In this document: positions 4,311 to 29,064 of the stretch, one piece after another | Layout of the letters: the number at the start of each line of letters is the position of its first letter | Numbering within the stretch: the first letter of the stretch is position 1 | Assembly: GCA_002720855.1 (NCBI GenBank) | Contig: PBIN01000009.1 | Location: 153,222 to 217,221, forward strand | Reading direction: 5' to 3' | From: Rhodospirillaceae bacterium | GTDB lineage: Bacteria > Pseudomonadota > Alphaproteobacteria > MPNO01 > UBA2964 | Length of the DNA stretch: 64,000 bases | Notes under the pieces: generated by a model | Told to the model about the DNA's origin: nothing | Databases searched by the model: none | Seen by the model: only the letters and a program-made list of their open reading frames with translations | Position numbers and translations under genes: made by a program

Positions 4311-5509
4311 TACGCTCCACCGGGCAGGCCGGTGTTTTTGCCATAAAGCCATTCAACACCGGCGTATGGATTGCCTTCCTTCTTACCACCCAGTAGCAGG
4401 TTGCGGAGCTCACGGGTGACGCCTTCGGCGTGATATATGTCGCCATAGAAACGAGCGGTGAGCTGCACGCGGCCGGTGCGCATGTAACGCTTGCCGGGAT
4501 AATCGGCGAAGGTCCTTTCGATGTCGCCGTCATATTCCTCGAGTAAGTCGACCAGGCAGACCGCATCCTCCATCGCCATTCCCGCACCTGCTGCGAGATA
4601 TTGCAGCATCGGGTGTGCTGCATCGCCGATCAGGGTAACCCGGCCCTTAGTCCATTCCTTCACTGGTATCCGGTCGCACAGCACCCACATTTTCCAGACA
4701 TCGATCTTGTTCAGGAGAGCCTGCACTTCGGGCCTGACATCCTTGAAATGCTCAAAGAGCTCTTTGGAGTCGCCATATTCGTCCCATCCTTCGACATATT
4801 TCTGGCTATGAAAGACGGCGACGATGTTGAACAGCTCGCCGCGCCGCAGCTTGTAGTGGACAAGGTGGTTGCGAGGCCCGGCCCATAGCACAACATCCTC
4901 CATCCAGTTTTCGAGTTCCGGGGGTACCTCATCGATTGGCAGTACTGCGCGATAGGCAATGTGGCCGGAGACGATGGGGTCGCCATCGCCGATTATGCTC
5001 TCTCGAATTTTCGACCAAAGCCCGTCAGCACCGATAAGCGAGGAGCCCTCAACCGTGTCACCGCTTTCAGTTTCAACAGAGACGCTATCGCCATTATCCG
5101 TATAGCCGGTAACACCCGAACTGGTGCGGAGGTCGATCTCCTCCATGCTCGCGCAGGCATCGTAAAGTACCTTGTGAAGATCAGCGCGATGAATAACGGC
5201 GTATGGTTTACCGAAATGTGATTCCAGCCGGCGACCAAGCTCCATGCGCAAGACCTCTTCGCCGGTAAGACTATCCATCATGATAATATGCTCAGGGAAA
5301 TGAGCGATCTCGTGCATCGCTTTGGTAACCTGCAACCTGTCAAACATGCGATGCGTATTGGGTCCCAACTGGATCCCTGCACCTATTTCCCCAAATTCAG
5401 GCGCCTGTTCCAAAACGATACTGCGGCGACCTTTTATCGCGAGCATTCTGGCGGCAGCCAATCCGCCGATACCGCCACCGGCAATTATGATGGGTTTCGC
5501 GTCGCTCAT
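4310..5509 (-). CDS. FAD-dependent aromatic monooxygenase (3-hydroxybenzoate 6-hydroxylase / salicylate hydroxylase family).
   Basis: N-terminal GGGIGG dinucleotide fold and C-terminal GDAAHPMLQYLAAGAGMAMEDA motif; 399 aa. Confidence 0.7.
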   Translation of the reverse strand: MSDAKPIIIAGGGIGGLAAARMLAIKGRRSIVLEQAPEFGEIGAGIQLGPNTHRMFDRLQVTKAMHEIAHFPEHIIMMDSLTGEEVLRMELGRRLESHFGKPYAVIHRADLHKVLYDACASMEEIDLRTSSGVTGYTDNGDSVSVETESGDTVEGSSLIGADGLWSKIRESIIGDGDPIVSGHIAYRAVLPIDEVPPELENWMEDVVLWAGPRNHLVHYKLRRGELFNIVAVFHSQKYVEGWDEYGDSKELFEHFKDVRPEVQALLNKIDVWKMWVLCDRIPVKEWTKGRVTLIGDAAHPMLQYLAAGAGMAMEDAVCLVDLLEEYDGDIERTFADYPGKRYMRTGRVQLTARFYGDIYHAEGVTRELRNLLLGGKKEGNPYAGVEWLYGKNTGLPGGA

Positions 5510-21451: not shown

Positions 21452-21985
21452 ATGTCATTGCCTATACCGAAAACGGCAGCAGAAGCGCTGCTCATGCGCA
21501 TGAAATTTTGCGGAATTGACTACGTCTTTTCCAACGGTGGGACTGATTTTGCTTCAATCATCGAAGCGTATGCACGCGGGGCGACCGCGGGGTTGCCAAT
21601 GCCGGAGCCCATCATCGTAGCGCATGAAACTGCAGCCGTCGCGATGGCGACAGCCGTGCAAGCGACCCGAATTGGCTTGGTTATCTTCGCGATCCCCTTC
21701 TTGTTTGCCTATAACCCGATAATGCTGATTGTCCCTGAAGGGGGTGCGGCCTGGGATACTGTTGCTTTCCTCTTCGTACTGATAAAGCTCGCGGCCATTG
21801 TTTACATGCTTTCAAGTGCCGCATCGGGTTTCGACAAGACGAAAATGCACGTGCTCGAATCCATTTTGCGTATCGCAATTGCCTTGATCATTATTCACCC
21901 TGATATGTTGATCAGCGGATGTGCGATTGGTGCCGCGATAGCGATTTTTGCCGGGCATCGAATGCTAAAGTTAAGTCGCACATGA
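21452..21985 (+). pseudogene. Chimeric ORF. About 70 aa of a thiamine-diphosphate enzyme N-terminal domain are fused to a hydrophobic C-terminal fragment of a membrane transporter.
   Basis: Residues 1-75 resemble a TPP-enzyme N-domain (AAEALLMRMKFCGIDYVFSNGGTDF...PIIVAHETAAVAMA). The sequence then switches abruptly, at about nt 21665, to transmembrane sequence (IGLVIFAIPFLFAYNPIML...). Confidence 0.4.
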
Positions 21986-23092: not shown

Positions 23093-24118
23093 TTAGCTCG
23101 GCAGGAAAACGCCCTTGCCTGTCTTTTGCTGATCCAGCAATTTATAGGCCTCATCCGCCTGTTCGAGCTTGAACTGATGGGTGAAGACGCTATCGACGTC
23201 GATCTTGCGATCCGAGACAAATCGCGCACAATCGGCCTGTCCGTTCTTGGAAAATGTCCAATGGCCCACCAATGTCACCTGACGGAAAACAAGGTCTGGC
23301 CCAACCATGAAGGTAAGTTCGCCCCCACCCGCAATGAAACAGCAAGTGCCCCATTTACGGGTACCTTTGACCGCCGCTGTACGTGCCTGCGAGACGCCCG
23401 CCGTTTCAACAACTTTGTGGGCGCCCTCACCGTGCGTCAGCTCTTTGATGGCCTCGACTGGATCAACATCTGTTGGGTCAATAACAGCGTGCGCCCCTTT
23501 CTCAAGGGCAAGCTCTCGGCGTTCGGGAGATGTCTCAATAGCGATAACATGCGCGCCCATCTCCGCGCCGAATTGGGTTGTTGATAGTCCGACAGGACCC
23601 TGGCCATAAACAGCGAGCGTCTCGTCACCTTCAAGGCCTACTCTTTTAAGCGCGCCATACGCCGTCCCCGTGCCGCAGGAAATGGCAGCGCCGGTCATAA
23701 AGCTTAGATCCTCCGGCAACGGAACCAGCGTATGAGCCGCAGCGGCCATATAGCGTGCATGTGCGCCATGGCCTTGGCCAGAGCCATAAACCGTGGGGCC
23801 TTCATCGCAAAGTTGTGACCAGCCCGATTTACAGTGCCGGCAATTGCCACAGCCGTCATAGTGATGAACCATGACCCGGTCGCCGACCTTTGCTTCGCTC
23901 TCGGTAACATGTTCGCCGAGTGCCACGACGACGCCACATGGTTCGTGACCTGCAATAAAATGCTCGGTTCCTTTAAATTCACGACGATATGCATGTAAAT
24001 CGGTGCCGCACATACCGGACGCCTTGATTTCAAGAACAACGTCACGCGGGCTAGGCGTAGGGTCGGCAAACTCCCGCAATTCCAGTTCGCGGTTTCCGAG
24101 AAATGTAATGCCCAACAT
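23093..24118 (-). CDS. Zinc-dependent alcohol dehydrogenase (medium-chain dehydrogenase/reductase).
   Basis: Motif GHEPCGVVVALG. The start is at the internal Met (MLGITF...) rather than the track's 24187. Confidence 0.75.
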   Translation of the reverse strand: MLGITFLGNRELELREFADPTPSPRDVVLEIKASGMCGTDLHAYRREFKGTEHFIAGHEPCGVVVALGEHVTESEAKVGDRVMVHHYDGCGNCRHCKSGWSQLCDEGPTVYGSGQGHGAHARYMAAAAHTLVPLPEDLSFMTGAAISCGTGTAYGALKRVGLEGDETLAVYGQGPVGLSTTQFGAEMGAHVIAIETSPERRELALEKGAHAVIDPTDVDPVEAIKELTHGEGAHKVVETAGVSQARTAAVKGTRKWGTCCFIAGGGELTFMVGPDLVFRQVTLVGHWTFSKNGQADCARFVSDRKIDVDSVFTHQFKLEQADEAYKLLDQQKTGKGVFLPS

Positions 24119-24283
24119 ACTAATTTCGCCCCCAGATAATTCACATCGATTACAAATAGTAATAGCATTTTGCGAGTTGGGGGACACCTGACCGACTTTC
24201 TTTACTTGTCTCTCGTGACGTGGGCATTTGGGCTGGTATCATGAGCCATCATCAACGATCAGGCATTCGCCGGGGAGATCGAT

Positions 24284-24673
24284 ATGGCTCACAAATTTAC
24301 AAATCCGGATAGCGTAACGACGCCGCTAAATTATCATCAATCCGTAGAAGCAGAACCAGGTTGTCGATATCTGTTTGTCGCCGGACAGACGGGTATTGCG
24401 CTCGATGGTTCAATCCCGGATGGCATAGAGGCGCAGGCGGAGCTTGCCTTTGGTAATATGCAAAAAGTTCTCGCGGAATCGGGTTTTGGCCTTGAAGACG
24501 TCGTCTTTATGAAGTCATTTCTGACACGACGCGAGGATCGTGACGGATACCAAAAAGTTCGAGCCAGCGTCTGGGGAACAAACAAACCCGCCTCAACATT
24601 CTTGCTGGTTTCTGGACTAGCAAGGCCCCAATTTCTGGTCGAAGTCGAGTGTATCGCCGCAAAGAAAGATTGA
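24284..24673 (+). CDS. RidA/YjgF-family protein.
   Basis: 129 aa; YLFVAGQTG ... VEVECIA. Confidence 0.75.
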   Translation: MAHKFTNPDSVTTPLNYHQSVEAEPGCRYLFVAGQTGIALDGSIPDGIEAQAELAFGNMQKVLAESGFGLEDVVFMKSFLTRREDRDGYQKVRASVWGTNKPASTFLLVSGLARPQFLVEVECIAAKKD

Positions 24674-24674
24674 T

Positions 24675-25610
24675 ATGACGAACGTACCCGCCGATGCGCC
24701 CCAAACCCCGGGCGGTTCAGCCGTATTTCTTGACCATGTCGGATGGTTTGTACCCGATATGGATGCGCTTTCGGACACCATGGAAAAGCTGGGATTTGTT
24801 CTGACGCCCTTTGTTGCGCAGCACAATGCTGATCCAGATGGCGGAGCGCCTATACCGGCGGGGACCGGTAACCGCTGCGCGATGCTACAGCGTGGTTATC
24901 TTGAGTTTCTCGCGGCTGTTCCCGGTGTCGACACCCCTCTGGCGCAACAACTCAATGACGCGCTGGATCGCTATCATGGTTTGCATCTAATCGCTTTTAC
25001 CGTTGATGACAGTGAAGGAGCACATAAAAGGCTCCACGACGGTGGTTTTACACCGCTCGATCCGGTGCATCTGCGCCGGCCGCTGACGCTAGGCGACGGT
25101 AGTGAAGCCGAGGTCGCCTTTACGGTACTGCGTGTTCCGCCCGGCGTAATGGCGGAAGGCCGCATTCAAATGCTGCGTCAAGAAACGCCGGATCTGGTGT
25201 GGCAGGATCATTTGATTGCCCGCGAAAATGCCGTGGTGGCATTGGGTGGTGTGATTTTATGTGTTGATGACGTTGAGGAAGCATCTGAACGCTTTAGCCG
25301 GTTTGTCGGCGTACCGGTTGAGGGTGCTGGTGGTTATCGCTCTCTGCAGCTTGATCGTGGGAGACTGGGTTTTATGACGCCCGAAGAGATCAAGGGACGC
25401 ATATTTGCCATAGAAGTCCCGACGACACCGTTTATGGCAATCGTCTGCCTGCAATCAGAAGATCTTGGCAAAACCCAACATTTTTTATCAGACGCTGCTA
25501 TTTCGATCACGAAGCTTAGTGATCACGCCTTACTGGTAAATTCCCAGGATGCAGCTGGAGCTTCAATCATCATCTTCGATAAGGAAGAAGTGTGGCCGCC
25601 CGGAGATTAG
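24675..25610 (+). CDS. Two-domain VOC (glyoxalase/dioxygenase) family protein.
   Basis: Two glyoxalase-like halves (DHVGWFVPDMD..., VVALGGVILCVDD...). It begins 2 nt after the RidA stop. Confidence 0.5.
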   Translation: MTNVPADAPQTPGGSAVFLDHVGWFVPDMDALSDTMEKLGFVLTPFVAQHNADPDGGAPIPAGTGNRCAMLQRGYLEFLAAVPGVDTPLAQQLNDALDRYHGLHLIAFTVDDSEGAHKRLHDGGFTPLDPVHLRRPLTLGDGSEAEVAFTVLRVPPGVMAEGRIQMLRQETPDLVWQDHLIARENAVVALGGVILCVDDVEEASERFSRFVGVPVEGAGGYRSLQLDRGRLGFMTPEEIKGRIFAIEVPTTPFMAIVCLQSEDLGKTQHFLSDAAISITKLSDHALLVNSQDAAGASIIIFDKEEVWPPGD

Positions 25611-26719
25611 TCGTCGCTTTCTGAATAGTTGGTAATGTTCATGTCTGCATCGAATTCCAGCAGACCGTCCTGAAGCCACTGCGATGGTAGGACCTGCGGG
25701 CCGCGTTTTAAAGTCGGGAAAATCGCAGCGTCCTCCTTAGTTTGGGCTGGCCAGACATTGTTAGCGACAGCGGATTCGCGAACCAAAATGTCATCAGGGG
25801 TCACATTCCAAACCACCAGATCTTCCGCCAGAGTTAACGGGCCGTCATATATCGACCTGATTTCCTGCAGCACCTCGTATTTCGTGTCGAGGTCATTAAA
25901 AAAGTGGTAGGCGATGGCGAGCCGGGGTTTGACGACACTGAAGACCTTCCCAGCCTGCGCCGGGGATGTGTGATATTTGGTGGCAACCATCTCTGCGATT
26001 TCAGGTTTGAAGCCGCGGCGTCGAACCAGAGTGTCCGCCGTCATGAAAGATTCGTGAATTACCAGGTCGGCATTGCGGGCATATTCTAGGAACCACTTGT
26101 TGGGATTGGTGTCGGATGAATAGACAATGGTTCTACCATTCCATTCGAGCCGGAAGCTAACCGGGCCATCGGATATATGAACTGCGGGGAAAGAGGTGAT
26201 TTTGACGCCGTTCTCTTCATAGATCACAGCTGGTTCGGAAAAATCAAACTCATGCGCAATCAGATCGCCACCCCTTTCGGGTACGCTGCCTGTACGCGTC
26301 CGGTAATCCCAAGCCAGAGTTTTTTTGAGATTTTCAATGAAGGCGGCGGTCCCATATTCCGGTGCTTCACCTGAAGGTCCCCACACCTCTAGTGGCTCAG
26401 TTCTAGCGCCAAGCCACCCACCGATCCAAAGCTCGGCGAGATCGCCGACATGATCAACATGCAAATGTCCAAGAAAGACTTTCGTAAGCTGATTATAGGG
26501 AATTTCAAGCGAGGCAAGATTGGCAGCCGCTTGCGAGCCGATATCGAAAACAAAATTTTCACCGTTACCAAGTTGTACCAAGAACGATGCCGACGCCTGG
26601 CTTCGGCGGACCAAGGGCATGCCTGTGCCAAGCGCTATCACTCTTACCTCATCCTCGGCTAGCTCCTCTGTTCCGGGAAAATAATGGTCCCGATAATCGC
26701 GATTTTTTGTAGAGATCAT
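25607..26719 (-). CDS. MBL-fold metallo-hydrolase.
   Basis: HLHVDHVGDL metallo-beta-lactamase motif. The start is at MISTKN, 11 nt after the upstream stop; the track's extension overlaps the upstream gene. Confidence 0.65.
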   Translation of the reverse strand: MISTKNRDYRDHYFPGTEELAEDEVRVIALGTGMPLVRRSQASASFLVQLGNGENFVFDIGSQAAANLASLEIPYNQLTKVFLGHLHVDHVGDLAELWIGGWLGARTEPLEVWGPSGEAPEYGTAAFIENLKKTLAWDYRTRTGSVPERGGDLIAHEFDFSEPAVIYEENGVKITSFPAVHISDGPVSFRLEWNGRTIVYSSDTNPNKWFLEYARNADLVIHESFMTADTLVRRRGFKPEIAEMVATKYHTSPAQAGKVFSVVKPRLAIAYHFFNDLDTKYEVLQEIRSIYDGPLTLAEDLVVWNVTPDDILVRESAVANNVWPAQTKEDAAIFPTLKRGPQVLPSQWLQDGLLEFDADMNITNYSESDD

Positions 26720-26729
26720 GATTGTCGCC

Positions 26730-28430
26730 TCAATGCGTATCGAAGACTTTCTGATAGTCAGCGACCTTGGCATCGATAGCCTTAGCCTCTTCCTCAGTTG
26801 GGTTGTCGGGATCCCTCGCCGGCGGGATTGCACCAAACCGCATCAGGCATGCGATGAGTAATAGCCGCGCCTTTGTCGATGTCAGGTTGCTGCCGCCAAT
26901 AAAGCCACCGCCTCCAGATGAGAATCCTTCGTTATTTCCGCGTCCGACACGAACGACCGGCATTCCGCAGCGAATGGCACGGGCGAGCAGGCCCTCGCGG
27001 GGTTTATTGGTCATTGAGCCATAAGGTGACTGGCCCTCTATGACAAAGCCTGCCAGCGGATTATTCGCCAAATTATCCTCAATTTGCGCCAGCGTATCAA
27101 TTTCGCGCTCCGGTCCGCTGTCAAACGACTCTGCGGTGTAGTTCCCATCTTTTACGATAGAGACGTGCGGTACAGCGCTTTCCACCAGGTTCCCATCGCC
27201 ATCCTTCACGCGCACTTCGGTAGTAATGATCTGCGTCCCTTCCTGTGTAATACCATCCACGGTCTCCGGAATTTGGGTTCGGTTTACCGCTGATTGCCAG
27301 GTGTGTTTGGCTCCGGGCAAATAGGTGAGGATCGGCGGCAAATCGTGGCCACGGACCGCGCCAAGCAATCCGCCATGGCCGCCGGTTGCAACATAGCCAC
27401 CAGGACGCGCGTCTCCTTTCTGTACCTCTCGGGAGGCAAATACTTGCTGCTCCTGTATGACGACCGTACCAGCCTTGTTTCGGCCGTCGGCGTCCTCCCA
27501 AACCCGGGAGGTAATATACTCAACGGAATCTACGAGATTTTTAGGCCCATCATTGCTGATTTCACCATGAGGTCGCTGTGCCGCATTGCCGCAAACTGGC
27601 AAGGTGGTATCGAGAATGATGTTGAGCCAATAAAGAGTCTCTTCTACGCGCGGACTCCCTTGAGTCCAAATTGCTCCGAGATACTCGCCGGTATCCAGAA
27701 TCTTCTGCGCCTCATTGGCAATTCGCGCCAATGCGGGGCGAGGTGGTGAGACCGAAAGATGTCGTGGCCGGTAAACGAAATAGTCTTGACCTAGAGTTTC
27801 GGGCGCAATATCGCCGGACCCAACATCTGTTCGTTGATCGGCAGGCAGTCCCTTCGTGTAGCCGCTCGACGGTAGTATCCTGAAAAACTCCATGTCGGCG
27901 CGTGCGGATACAAGGTTACCCGTACCATTCTCTGCGATGCTGAGCCGGTCAATTTCCTCGAACATGCGTGAGCCGTCAGGGTAATAAGGCTGCCGACTTT
28001 TCTCCGCCGGCGCATTCGTGAAAGCGCAGTCATCCTCCCAGGCGCTACCATCTGCCTGTCGTGCCATATAGGGCAGGGGATAAAGCCCGTCCTCTGGCAC
28101 AAGTTCAACTTTGTACACAGGTGTATCATCGTCGTTTTGCTGCACTTCGTTAAATTCACCGTGAGTATCCAAATAGCCGTCGGGCGGGCCATATAGCTCC
28201 GCAGCATCAGCTTCCAGGGGGTGTGCACTAAATTGTTCAACATAAACGATCGCAGGGGCTGCCAACCGTTGCGGTCGCAAAACATCGAACCTCTGCGCGC
28301 TGCCGTCAAAATTAGTTCGCAGGGGTAGATCGTATTTCTGCCGCGCTTTGTTGCTCGTGACCAGCGGCGGACTATTGCTGATCGTTGCGTTTGACCCAGA
28401 TAAATGTGCAATTTTTGGTTTGTTGGCCAT
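26730..28430 (-). CDS. Asparaginase/glutaminase-superfamily protein with a ~200-aa insertion.
   Basis: Blocks IWTQGSPRVEETLYWLN, LPVCGNAAQRPHGEISNDGPKNL, VVRVGRGNNEG and KARLLLIACL track the AnsB motifs (HGTDTMEETAYFL, MRPSTSMSADGPFNL, GVGNGN). Residues 30-240 have no counterpart. Confidence 0.55.
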   Translation of the reverse strand: MANKPKIAHLSGSNATISNSPPLVTSNKARQKYDLPLRTNFDGSAQRFDVLRPQRLAAPAIVYVEQFSAHPLEADAAELYGPPDGYLDTHGEFNEVQQNDDDTPVYKVELVPEDGLYPLPYMARQADGSAWEDDCAFTNAPAEKSRQPYYPDGSRMFEEIDRLSIAENGTGNLVSARADMEFFRILPSSGYTKGLPADQRTDVGSGDIAPETLGQDYFVYRPRHLSVSPPRPALARIANEAQKILDTGEYLGAIWTQGSPRVEETLYWLNIILDTTLPVCGNAAQRPHGEISNDGPKNLVDSVEYITSRVWEDADGRNKAGTVVIQEQQVFASREVQKGDARPGGYVATGGHGGLLGAVRGHDLPPILTYLPGAKHTWQSAVNRTQIPETVDGITQEGTQIITTEVRVKDGDGNLVESAVPHVSIVKDGNYTAESFDSGPEREIDTLAQIEDNLANNPLAGFVIEGQSPYGSMTNKPREGLLARAIRCGMPVVRVGRGNNEGFSSGGGGFIGGSNLTSTKARLLLIACLMRFGAIPPARDPDNPTEEEAKAIDAKVADYQKVFDTH

Positions 28431-28530
28431 CGTGTCTCTCCCTGATCACTGCAAAAAGCGTAGCACGCCAATTTTGTGCCGTCTTGGGTTGGAGATTTTC
28501 GTTTTGCGATGGTTGCGTTAGAAAGAATGT

Positions 28531-29064
28531 ATGAGTGAAGACGTTTGGGTTTTTGGATATGGATCTCTCGTCTGGCGCCCCGATTTTAAATTCGCGGAGC
28601 GGCGACCGGCTACAATTGAGGGCTGGGTGAGGCGATTTTGGCAAGGGTCAACCGATCATCGGGGTGTCCCCGGAGCGCCTGGCCGTGTAGTCACGCTTGA
28701 AGCTGATGAAAAAGGGATCTGTTGGGGGATGGCCTATAGAATCGCGGCGGCGGATGTTGAACCAATTATGGTCGAACTCGATTACCGTGAAAAAGGCGGT
28801 TACAGCGTTAAAAACGTGGAGATGATCTTCCCAACTGACGATCACCCAAATGTGACGGGGCTTGCCTACATTGGTACTCCGGACAACCCCAACTACCTTG
28901 GTCCCGAAACTGAGGAAAGAATCGCTGCTCAAGTCGTCGCATCTACTGGCCCTAGCGGTCCGAATGACGAATACGTGCTGCGATTGGCAGAAGCACTGCG
29001 TGAACTTGGAGCAGATGACCCGCATGTCTTTGAGCTAGAAAGACAAGTTCGAAAGCTGATTTGA
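28531..29064 (+). CDS. ChaC-like gamma-glutamylcyclotransferase.
   Basis: VWVFGYGSLVW N-terminal motif and YREKGGY. Confidence 0.7.
   Translation: MSEDVWVFGYGSLVWRPDFKFAERRPATIEGWVRRFWQGSTDHRGVPGAPGRVVTLEADEKGICWGMAYRIAAADVEPIMVELDYREKGGYSVKNVEMIFPTDDHPNVTGLAYIGTPDNPNYLGPETEERIAAQVVASTGPSGPNDEYVLRLAEALRELGADDPHVFELERQVRKLI

Follow-up and report, generated by a model that had tools for sequence, protein, structure and literature searches.

The ASNL gene and its immediate surroundings

The window analysed here is a stretch of 64,000 nucleotides from a Rhodospirillaceae bacterium (contig PBIN01000009.1, positions 153,222 to 217,221), and our subject is a gene on its minus strand (26730..28430) encoding an asparaginase-fold protein of 566 amino acids without signal peptide, which we call ASNL. 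For the comparison enzyme, residues are numbered as in EcAII. The ASNL reading frame is not a chance one, because more than 4,000 homologues are found, with identities of at least 42% over the full length. Downstream on the same strand lies a gene (25607..26719) for a 370-residue hydrolase of the metallo-beta-lactamase (MBL) fold and of the PNGM-1/GntH type, with HLHVDH at residues 85-90. The ATG giving 370 residues was preferred to the longer TTG frame of the mechanical list of open reading frames, since the homologues have 370-375 residues and the alignment with PNGM-1 starts at residue 10. The ASNL stop codon (TGA, 26732-26730) and the MBL start codon (ATG, 26719-26717) are separated by the 10-nt spacer GGCGACAATC, a distance given as 11 nt in the first-pass annotation of this DNA, and a GAGG lies 9 nt upstream of the ATG, overlapping the ASNL stop codon. 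Given the short spacer and the GAGG, ASNL is very probably co-transcribed with the MBL gene in the source genome.

The genes beyond are on the plus strand. A Rid (YjgF/UK114) family protein (24284..24673) is encoded by the first gene of a convergent two-gene unit; 1 nt further begins the gene of a 311-residue VOC protein (24675..25610; Glyoxalase_3, PF13468, 79 bits), whose stop overlaps the convergent MBL stop by 4 nt. The locus consists of two convergent units, Rid-VOC and ASNL-MBL, rather than of a single operon. Thus, the operon described in the first-pass annotation, with an MBL-fold hydrolase beside RidA and VOC genes, very probably holds for the MBL gene and does not extend to the Rid and VOC genes. 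On the other side, a ChaC gene (28531-29064, plus strand) diverges from ASNL across an intergenic region of 100 nt (28431..28530), partly conserved in two related loci, L006 and L007. Altogether, the genes flanking ASNL and MBL encode ChaC, a CDO-like protein, Zn-dependent alcohol dehydrogenases (ADHs), an AMP-binding enzyme, Rid, VOC and an NMT1-like protein.

Fold, catalytic residues and family of ASNL

The Pfam Asparaginase N-terminal domain (PF00710) covers only residues 234-341 of ASNL (E 1.1e-10), and Asparaginase_C (PF17763) gives 22.6 bits, below its cutoff of 34.6. Scores against the narrower models are far under their cutoffs, namely 54.4 versus 314.3 for TIGR00520 (type II asparaginase) and 32.8 versus 506 for NF008304. 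The AlphaFold2 model, computed with 140 diverse homologues, reaches a pLDDT of 96.2 and a pTM of 0.93 and displays the two-domain alpha/beta asparaginase fold; the closest structures are type II asparaginases. ASNL is almost certainly a member of the asparaginase-fold family, and the Pfam match, the model and the alignments described below agree with the initial remark that the asparaginase blocks are kept in this protein. Since it opens directly at strand beta-1 without a signal peptide, ASNL is most likely cytoplasmic.

The nucleophile block KIAHLSGSNATISNSPPL (residues 6-23; 28362..28415, minus strand) consists of strand beta-1 followed by Gly12 and Thr16. It contains the divergent motif LSGSNATIS that had been noticed from the sequence alone, when the identity of the retained nucleophile was left open. 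Thr16 lies five residues past strand beta-1 (residues 6-11 in the model), within a G-x-x-A-T-I motif. Residue conservation was counted in 140 diverse homologues, with identity to ASNL down to about 40%: Thr16 and Leu23 occur in 140/140, Gly12 in 139/140 and Asn19 in 138/140. MAFFT alignment with EcAII puts Thr16 on Thr12; attempts to align the first 80 residues with EcAII by profile (hhalign, run globally and locally, and an insertion-deleted hidden Markov model) gave nothing significant. We equate Thr16 with Thr12 of EcAII because of its position after strand beta-1, its invariance and its placement by MAFFT. On the grounds of position and invariance, the nucleophilic Thr directly after strand beta-1 is retained in ASNL.

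The second catalytic triad, Thr89-Lys162-Asp90 in EcAII, is altered: the Lys is kept, Thr is replaced by Ser and Asp by Pro. The stretch QGSPRVEETLYWL (residues 257-269) was aligned to HGTDTMEETAYFL by phmmer against the PDB, by MAFFT and by hhalign, and the block WTQGSPRVEETLYWL (residues 255-269; 27624..27668, minus strand) corresponds to EcAII ITHGTDTMEETAYFL, with Ser259 for Thr89 and Pro260 for Asp90. In the homologues, the first of these positions is Ser in 138/140 and Thr in the other two, while the second is Pro in 129/140 and otherwise Ala or Ser, never Asp. The block SREVQKGDARPGGYVATGGHGG (residues 333-354; 27369..27434, minus strand), placed by hhalign and phmmer, holds Arg334, Lys338 (EcAII Lys162), Asp340 and Arg342; Lys338 and Arg334 are invariant (140/140 each), and Arg342 and Asp340 are found in 139/140 and 130/140, respectively. 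The three methods concur in equating Ser259 with Thr89, Pro260 with Asp90 and Lys338 with Lys162. The Ser-Pro reading of the canonical Thr-Asp pair, first proposed by eye, is a fixed character of the family, and no Thr-Asp pair was found at shifted positions.

In EcAII structures, Asp90 and Glu283 hold the alpha-amino group of L-Asp or L-Asn. This pair, whose Glu283' comes from the partner subunit, is absent from ASNL: Asp90 is replaced, and the EcAII loop bearing Glu283 is deleted in the hhalign alignment of the family profile with EcAII. As for the lid tyrosine, no conserved Tyr occurs within 35 residues of Thr16 and the region after Thr16 cannot be aligned to EcAII; Y121 and Y220, both in the inserted segment, are invariant or near-invariant. 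A correspondence of Ser68-Ala69-His70 with the substrate loop Ser58-Gln59-Asp60 of EcAII is a conjecture drawn from the strand order in the model, which profile alignment did not confirm.

These residues bear on whether ASNL could be an ordinary L-asparaginase/glutaminase with decorative insertions, scavenging the nitrogen of Asn or Gln. Its fold is complete, its nearest structures are type II enzymes, the Thr and the Lys are retained, Ser could in principle stand in for Thr89, and the source databases use the name 'asparaginase'. Nevertheless, we consider this explanation improbable in view of the Pro at the Asp90 position, the deleted Glu283 loop, the low TIGR00520 and NF008304 scores, the N-terminal 230 residues that cannot be aligned to canonical enzymes, and the invariant insertion residues and terminal His described below, which imply additional functional constraints. 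Judging from these sequence characters, ASNL is likely not a dedicated L-asparaginase/glutaminase, a view to which we attach good confidence and which agrees with the first-pass suggestion that the protein is not a standard L-asparaginase.

The incomplete canonical triad would also fit a non-catalytic or non-hydrolytic derivative, i.e., a ligand-binding or regulatory protein, or an ammonia-donating amidotransferase subunit as in GatD, and other proteins could bind to the large surface that has been added. However, the invariance of Thr16, Lys338 and Arg334 and the near-invariance of Ser259 are hard to explain without catalysis, the 80 loci show no constant partner, and the top neighbour families include nothing GatE-like; such a derivative is very improbable. 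The likeness to GatD itself (the archaeal Glu-tRNA(Gln) amidotransferase subunit, PDB 2D6F) is insignificant (E 0.4), and the added segment of ASNL lies inside the N domain instead of being prepended to it. The pattern of conservation indicates that ASNL is probably a catalytically active, Thr-dependent hydrolase.

The family-specific segment (residues 20-232; 27735..28373, minus strand) separates the nucleophile block from the helix that precedes the Ser259 block, and residues 72-232 are its core (27735-28217). According to the order of secondary-structure elements, the extra material amounts to about 15 residues past the nucleophile loop and some 160 more (72-232). The segment is acidic, with 34 D/E versus 20 K/R and a pI of 4.2-4.55 (4.9 for the whole protein), and has no counterpart in Pfam or among PDB folds; the unmatched acidic segment of about 200 residues initially described is therefore real and corresponds to no known accessory domain in these two collections. 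Folded alone with a 30-sequence alignment, residues 70-234 are mostly coil (pLDDT 85). The mean column conservation of the insertion is 0.62, as compared to 0.66 in the core, and eight of its residues are invariant (R52, Q54, H70, P71, R155, E159, R184 and Y220); because of these two features we conclude that the insertion is under purifying selection. It looks like an integral, selected elaboration packed on the core, not a separable domain.

Two further additions were identified. An extra inter-domain beta-hairpin at residues ~388-420 (33 residues; 27171..27269, minus strand) faces a gap in EcAII in the hhalign alignment and forms strands 390-397 and 400-407 in the AlphaFold2 model. At the C-terminus, an extension of about 30 residues (536-566; 26733..26825, minus strand), with a helix at 546-565 in the model, ends in FDTH-COOH. 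His is the last residue in 140/140 family members, and the complete FDTH ending (window 26733-26744) is found in 103/140. Such a fixed terminal His and carboxylate suggests a functional role, which may be a contact with the active site or with a metal.

Overall, ASNL shares with the type II asparaginases (EcAII, C. jejuni 3NXK and H. pylori 2WLT) the Thr after strand beta-1, the xGxxxxEET block, the R-x-V-x-K block with the catalytic Lys and the C-terminal KAR motif. It differs from them by about 240 extra residues (the 20-232 segment, the 388-420 hairpin and the C-terminal helix), by Ser for Thr89 and Pro for Asp90, by the absence of the Glu283 loop, of a Tyr25 lid recognisable by alignment and of a signal peptide, by the invariant terminal His and by scores far under the equivalog and subfamily cutoffs. 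In the mammalian-type 60-kDa lysophospholipase/asparaginase (guinea pig 5DNC, type I-like), the extra length is a C-terminal ankyrin-repeat domain, whereas in ASNL it is internal and without recognisable fold. To our knowledge, fold classifications list just the type I, type II, GatD and lysophospholipase forms. Within the bacterial-type (class 1) asparaginase/glutaminase fold, ASNL and its relatives make up a distinct subfamily that is widespread and uncharacterised; we see in it a structural variant of a well-known enzyme fold, not something categorically new.

The subfamily is large. Among 8,000 candidates scored in a 90%-clustered collection, 4,119 proteins match at E<=0.001, and the best 120 homologues are all about 565 residues long; 204 clusters at 50% identity have E<1e-30, with full-length members down to 42% identity. 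Relatives of ASNL occur in at least 577 species genomes. The carriers include Alpha- and Betaproteobacteria, Rokubacteria/Methylomirabilota, Chloroflexota and Actinobacteria, with cultured representatives such as Bradyrhizobium elkanii WSM2783 and Bradyrhizobium sp. dw_78, and the subfamily is very abundant in marine metagenomes. In the databases, its members are named 'asparaginase', 'asparaginase domain-containing protein', 'L-asparaginase' or 'hypothetical protein'.

Proposed reaction and substrate

Taken together, the explanation that we moderately favour, as a combined statement, is that ASNL is a cytoplasmic Thr-nucleophile amidohydrolase acting on an amide other than free L-Asn. In this scheme, Thr16 would attack the amide carbonyl to form an acyl-enzyme with departure of ammonia or of an amine, and the pair Ser259-Lys338, equivalent to the second catalytic pair with Ser in place of Thr, would assist the water-mediated deacylation. 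Replacement of Asp90 by Pro260 together with the missing Glu283 loop would remove both groups that hold the alpha-amino group; given the loss of these contacts, neither free L-Asn nor free L-Gln is likely to be the substrate. An amide that bears a carboxylate and lacks an alpha-ammonium group appears more likely, candidates being a dicarboxylic acid monoamide, a 2-oxo- or 2-hydroxy-amide, or a ureido compound. The substrate would be anionic, as the many invariant arginines suggest. The segment of about 210 residues starts right past the nucleophile loop and, because of this topological position, probably takes the place of the mobile Tyr25 lid and forms a substrate pocket of its own.

The gene neighbourhoods of ASNL relatives offer some support for an amidohydrolase role, since several C-N hydrolases and enzymes of N-heterocycle metabolism recur in them. 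Among 145 immediate neighbours, the most frequent families are isochorismatase and MBL (7 each), amidase, 3-hydroxyacyl-CoA dehydrogenase, D-2-hydroxyacid dehydrogenase and DUF3299 (5 each) and Amidohydro_2 (4). A RutB/BiuH-like isochorismatase hydrolase accompanies ASNL in two clades, each time with a different ABC transporter; amidase-signature enzymes and Amidohydro_2 proteins are found in three clades each, MBLs of two unrelated subfamilies also occur beside it, and polysaccharide-deacetylase-like proteins and the Mo-hydroxylase large subunit do so in two to three clades each. Hydantoinase A/B with a GntR regulator and LigAB are seen as well. These recurrent partners are the company typical of C-N-bond hydrolases that catabolise amides, ureides and N-heterocycles, and they do not by themselves name the substrate. 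In one well-sampled clade, a D-2-hydroxyacid dehydrogenase gene lies directly downstream of ASNL and a split thiamine pyrophosphate (TPP)-dependent decarboxylase diverges upstream; because of these two neighbours, a 2-oxo- or 2-hydroxy-dicarboxylate monoamide would fit as the substrate, a conjecture that we put forward tentatively and regard as rather unlikely.

Several observations weigh against the amidohydrolase reading given above. The loss of Asp90 could also mean a changed or weakened catalytic mechanism and not a changed substrate. The neighbourhood signal is diffuse, as the 145 immediate neighbours spread over 104 Pfam families; when the arrangements are mapped on the similarity groups of ASNL, each follows one clade, and many of the associations are single evolutionary events. 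None of the neighbouring gene clusters occurs in more than one third of 84 loci, and the commonest encodes a generic ABC ATPase. Finally, our literature searches for a characterised member of the family found no paper.

Asparaginases are among the best-studied hydrolases owing to their use in leukaemia therapy and food processing. Since ASNL has kept the nucleophile, lost the alpha-amino contacts and gained a conserved segment without known fold, a new substrate specificity on an old scaffold is likely. It follows that the labels 'asparaginase' and 'L-asparaginase' on its relatives probably mis-state the nitrogen metabolism of many genomes and metagenome-assembled genomes. A bolder proposal would be a new enzyme class with a Thr/Ser-Lys core, a fold-less lid of about 160-210 residues, the terminal His placed in the active site (perhaps that of a partner subunit) and an environmentally common amide or ureido substrate. 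We consider this unlikely; were it true, it would define a step of nitrogen release that is so far missing for Alphaproteobacteria, Rokubacteria and Actinobacteria of sea and soil.

Neighbouring genes and their turnover

The MBL-fold protein scores 451 bits against the NCBIfam equivalog NF041257 ('GntH'), above the cutoff of 333, and aligns with PNGM-1 (PDB 6j4n) with an E value of 5e-110 over residues 10-357; the HxHxDH metal motif is kept. PNGM-1 is a metagenomic B3-like MBL, labelled an 'ancestral' B3 enzyme, for which beta-lactamase and tRNase Z activities have been reported (PMC6882493); its gene context is not described in the original paper. The corresponding MBL family has more than 6,000 members, mostly named 'ribonuclease Z' by JGI. 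A link to guanitoxin through the name 'GntH' was considered and rejected: no gnt genes occur among the flanking genes checked, and the literature searched is silent on GntH. Both the name 'guanitoxin biosynthesis GntH' and the beta-lactamase/tRNase Z names taken from PNGM-1 look unreliable as guides to the physiological function of this protein, and the corresponding toxin-biosynthesis and antibiotic-resistance labels are both questionable in this genomic context, a catabolic neighbourhood of an alphaproteobacterium.

The genomes related to the window share a syntenic block composed of the AMP-binding, ADH, CDO-like and ChaC genes, a slot, and the VOC and Rid genes, and the content of the slot varies. 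It holds ASNL and MBL in the window, L006 and L007; ASNL (83% identical) with an amidase gene on the other strand and no MBL in L001; MBL alone (82% identical) without ASNL in L086/L087; ASNL followed by a gene without Pfam family in L008; and ASNL followed by a gene of the same cluster in L034. This slot (window 25607-28530) resembles a small hot spot at which genes turn over, in marine alphaproteobacterial genomes that are otherwise syntenic.

The close spacing of the two genes raises the possibility that ASNL and MBL form a two-enzyme pathway and the operon a functional unit, in which the MBL protein would open a cyclic amide, lactam or lactone or cleave an ester and ASNL would deamidate the product, or the two would act in reverse order. 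Such a pathway would account for the 10-nt spacer with its ribosome-binding site, for the retention of the pair in L006 and L007 at 84-87% identity, for a second, unrelated lactonase-like MBL gene directly downstream of ASNL in L058, L063 and L070, and for the rank of the MBL fold among the immediate neighbours. However, an MBL of the PNGM-1 type accompanies ASNL in only 3 of 80 loci and one of the other type in the latter three, which amounts to about two evolutionary events; the same slot holds ASNL without MBL (L001) or MBL without ASNL (L086/L087), and unrelated genes surround the PNGM-1-like genes that are 72% and 61% identical. We regard the two-enzyme pathway as possible yet doubtful. 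The varying content of the slot and the unrelated surroundings of the distant PNGM-1-like genes lead us to conclude that ASNL and MBL are gained and lost independently and are unlikely to be an obligate functional couple; their pairing is lineage-specific, being limited to the nearest relatives, and is no defining character of the ASNL family.

The same applies to the Rid and VOC genes, which accompany ASNL only in its closest clade (>=78% identity). In the Rid protein, Ser103 aligns with the catalytic Arg105 of E. coli RidA (PAST versus PARS), and the protein scores 66 bits against PF01042 and 42.3 against TIGR00004, for which the cutoff is 106.25. It belongs to the wider Rid/YjgF superfamily and is unlikely to be an archetypal enamine/imine deaminase, the function first given to it as a RidA. 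The accompanying proposal, that these neighbours hint at an unusual amino-acid-derived substrate, loses its footing, as the Rid and VOC genes are on the opposite strand and confined to the closest clade and the MBL gene is dispensable.

As for regulatory signals, a scan of 24100-28700 for promoter and terminator consensus sequences gave nothing beyond the shuffled expectation, and a simple consensus scan detected no sigma-70-like promoter in 28431-28530. The stretch TTTCTAACGCA.C.ATC...AAACG.AAAT between ChaC and ASNL is common to the window, L006 and L007 and may be a regulator site. In L022 (~4921-5018), the perfect palindrome AACTGGTTAGACCAGTT lies upstream of an operon of ASNL, D-2-hydroxyacid dehydrogenase, GntR and hydantoinase B/A, as found in L020-type loci; it resembles a GntR/FadR-type operator, which suggests that the operon is under its own GntR. 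In an abundant marine clade at about 72% identity (L009, L010, L014, L017 and L054), ASNL diverges from an operon of the zinc-uptake type encoding ZrgA, DUF3299, an FtsX-like permease and an ABC ATPase. Regulation of ASNL by Zur (zinc) was considered and dropped, as no box of the TGTTAT...ATAACA type was seen by eye in the intergenic regions and the arrangement is limited to a single clade.

Two minor observations concern other genes. In the window, the open reading frame 21452-21985 (177 aa) matches with its first ~66 residues the N-terminus of a 583-aa TPP-dependent enzyme (46% identity; L009, 17847-19598), a type of enzyme found near ASNL in several other loci; the remainder is hydrophobic and unrelated to it, and the frame is probably a gene remnant, truncated or fused. 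Finally, the metagenome-assembled genome MFD03044.bin.2.60 holds two ASNL paralogues (L028 and L073, 65% and 60% identical to the query) in different contexts, one of them directly upstream of a Mo-hydroxylase large subunit, which may be a sign that family members have come to differ in substrate specificity.

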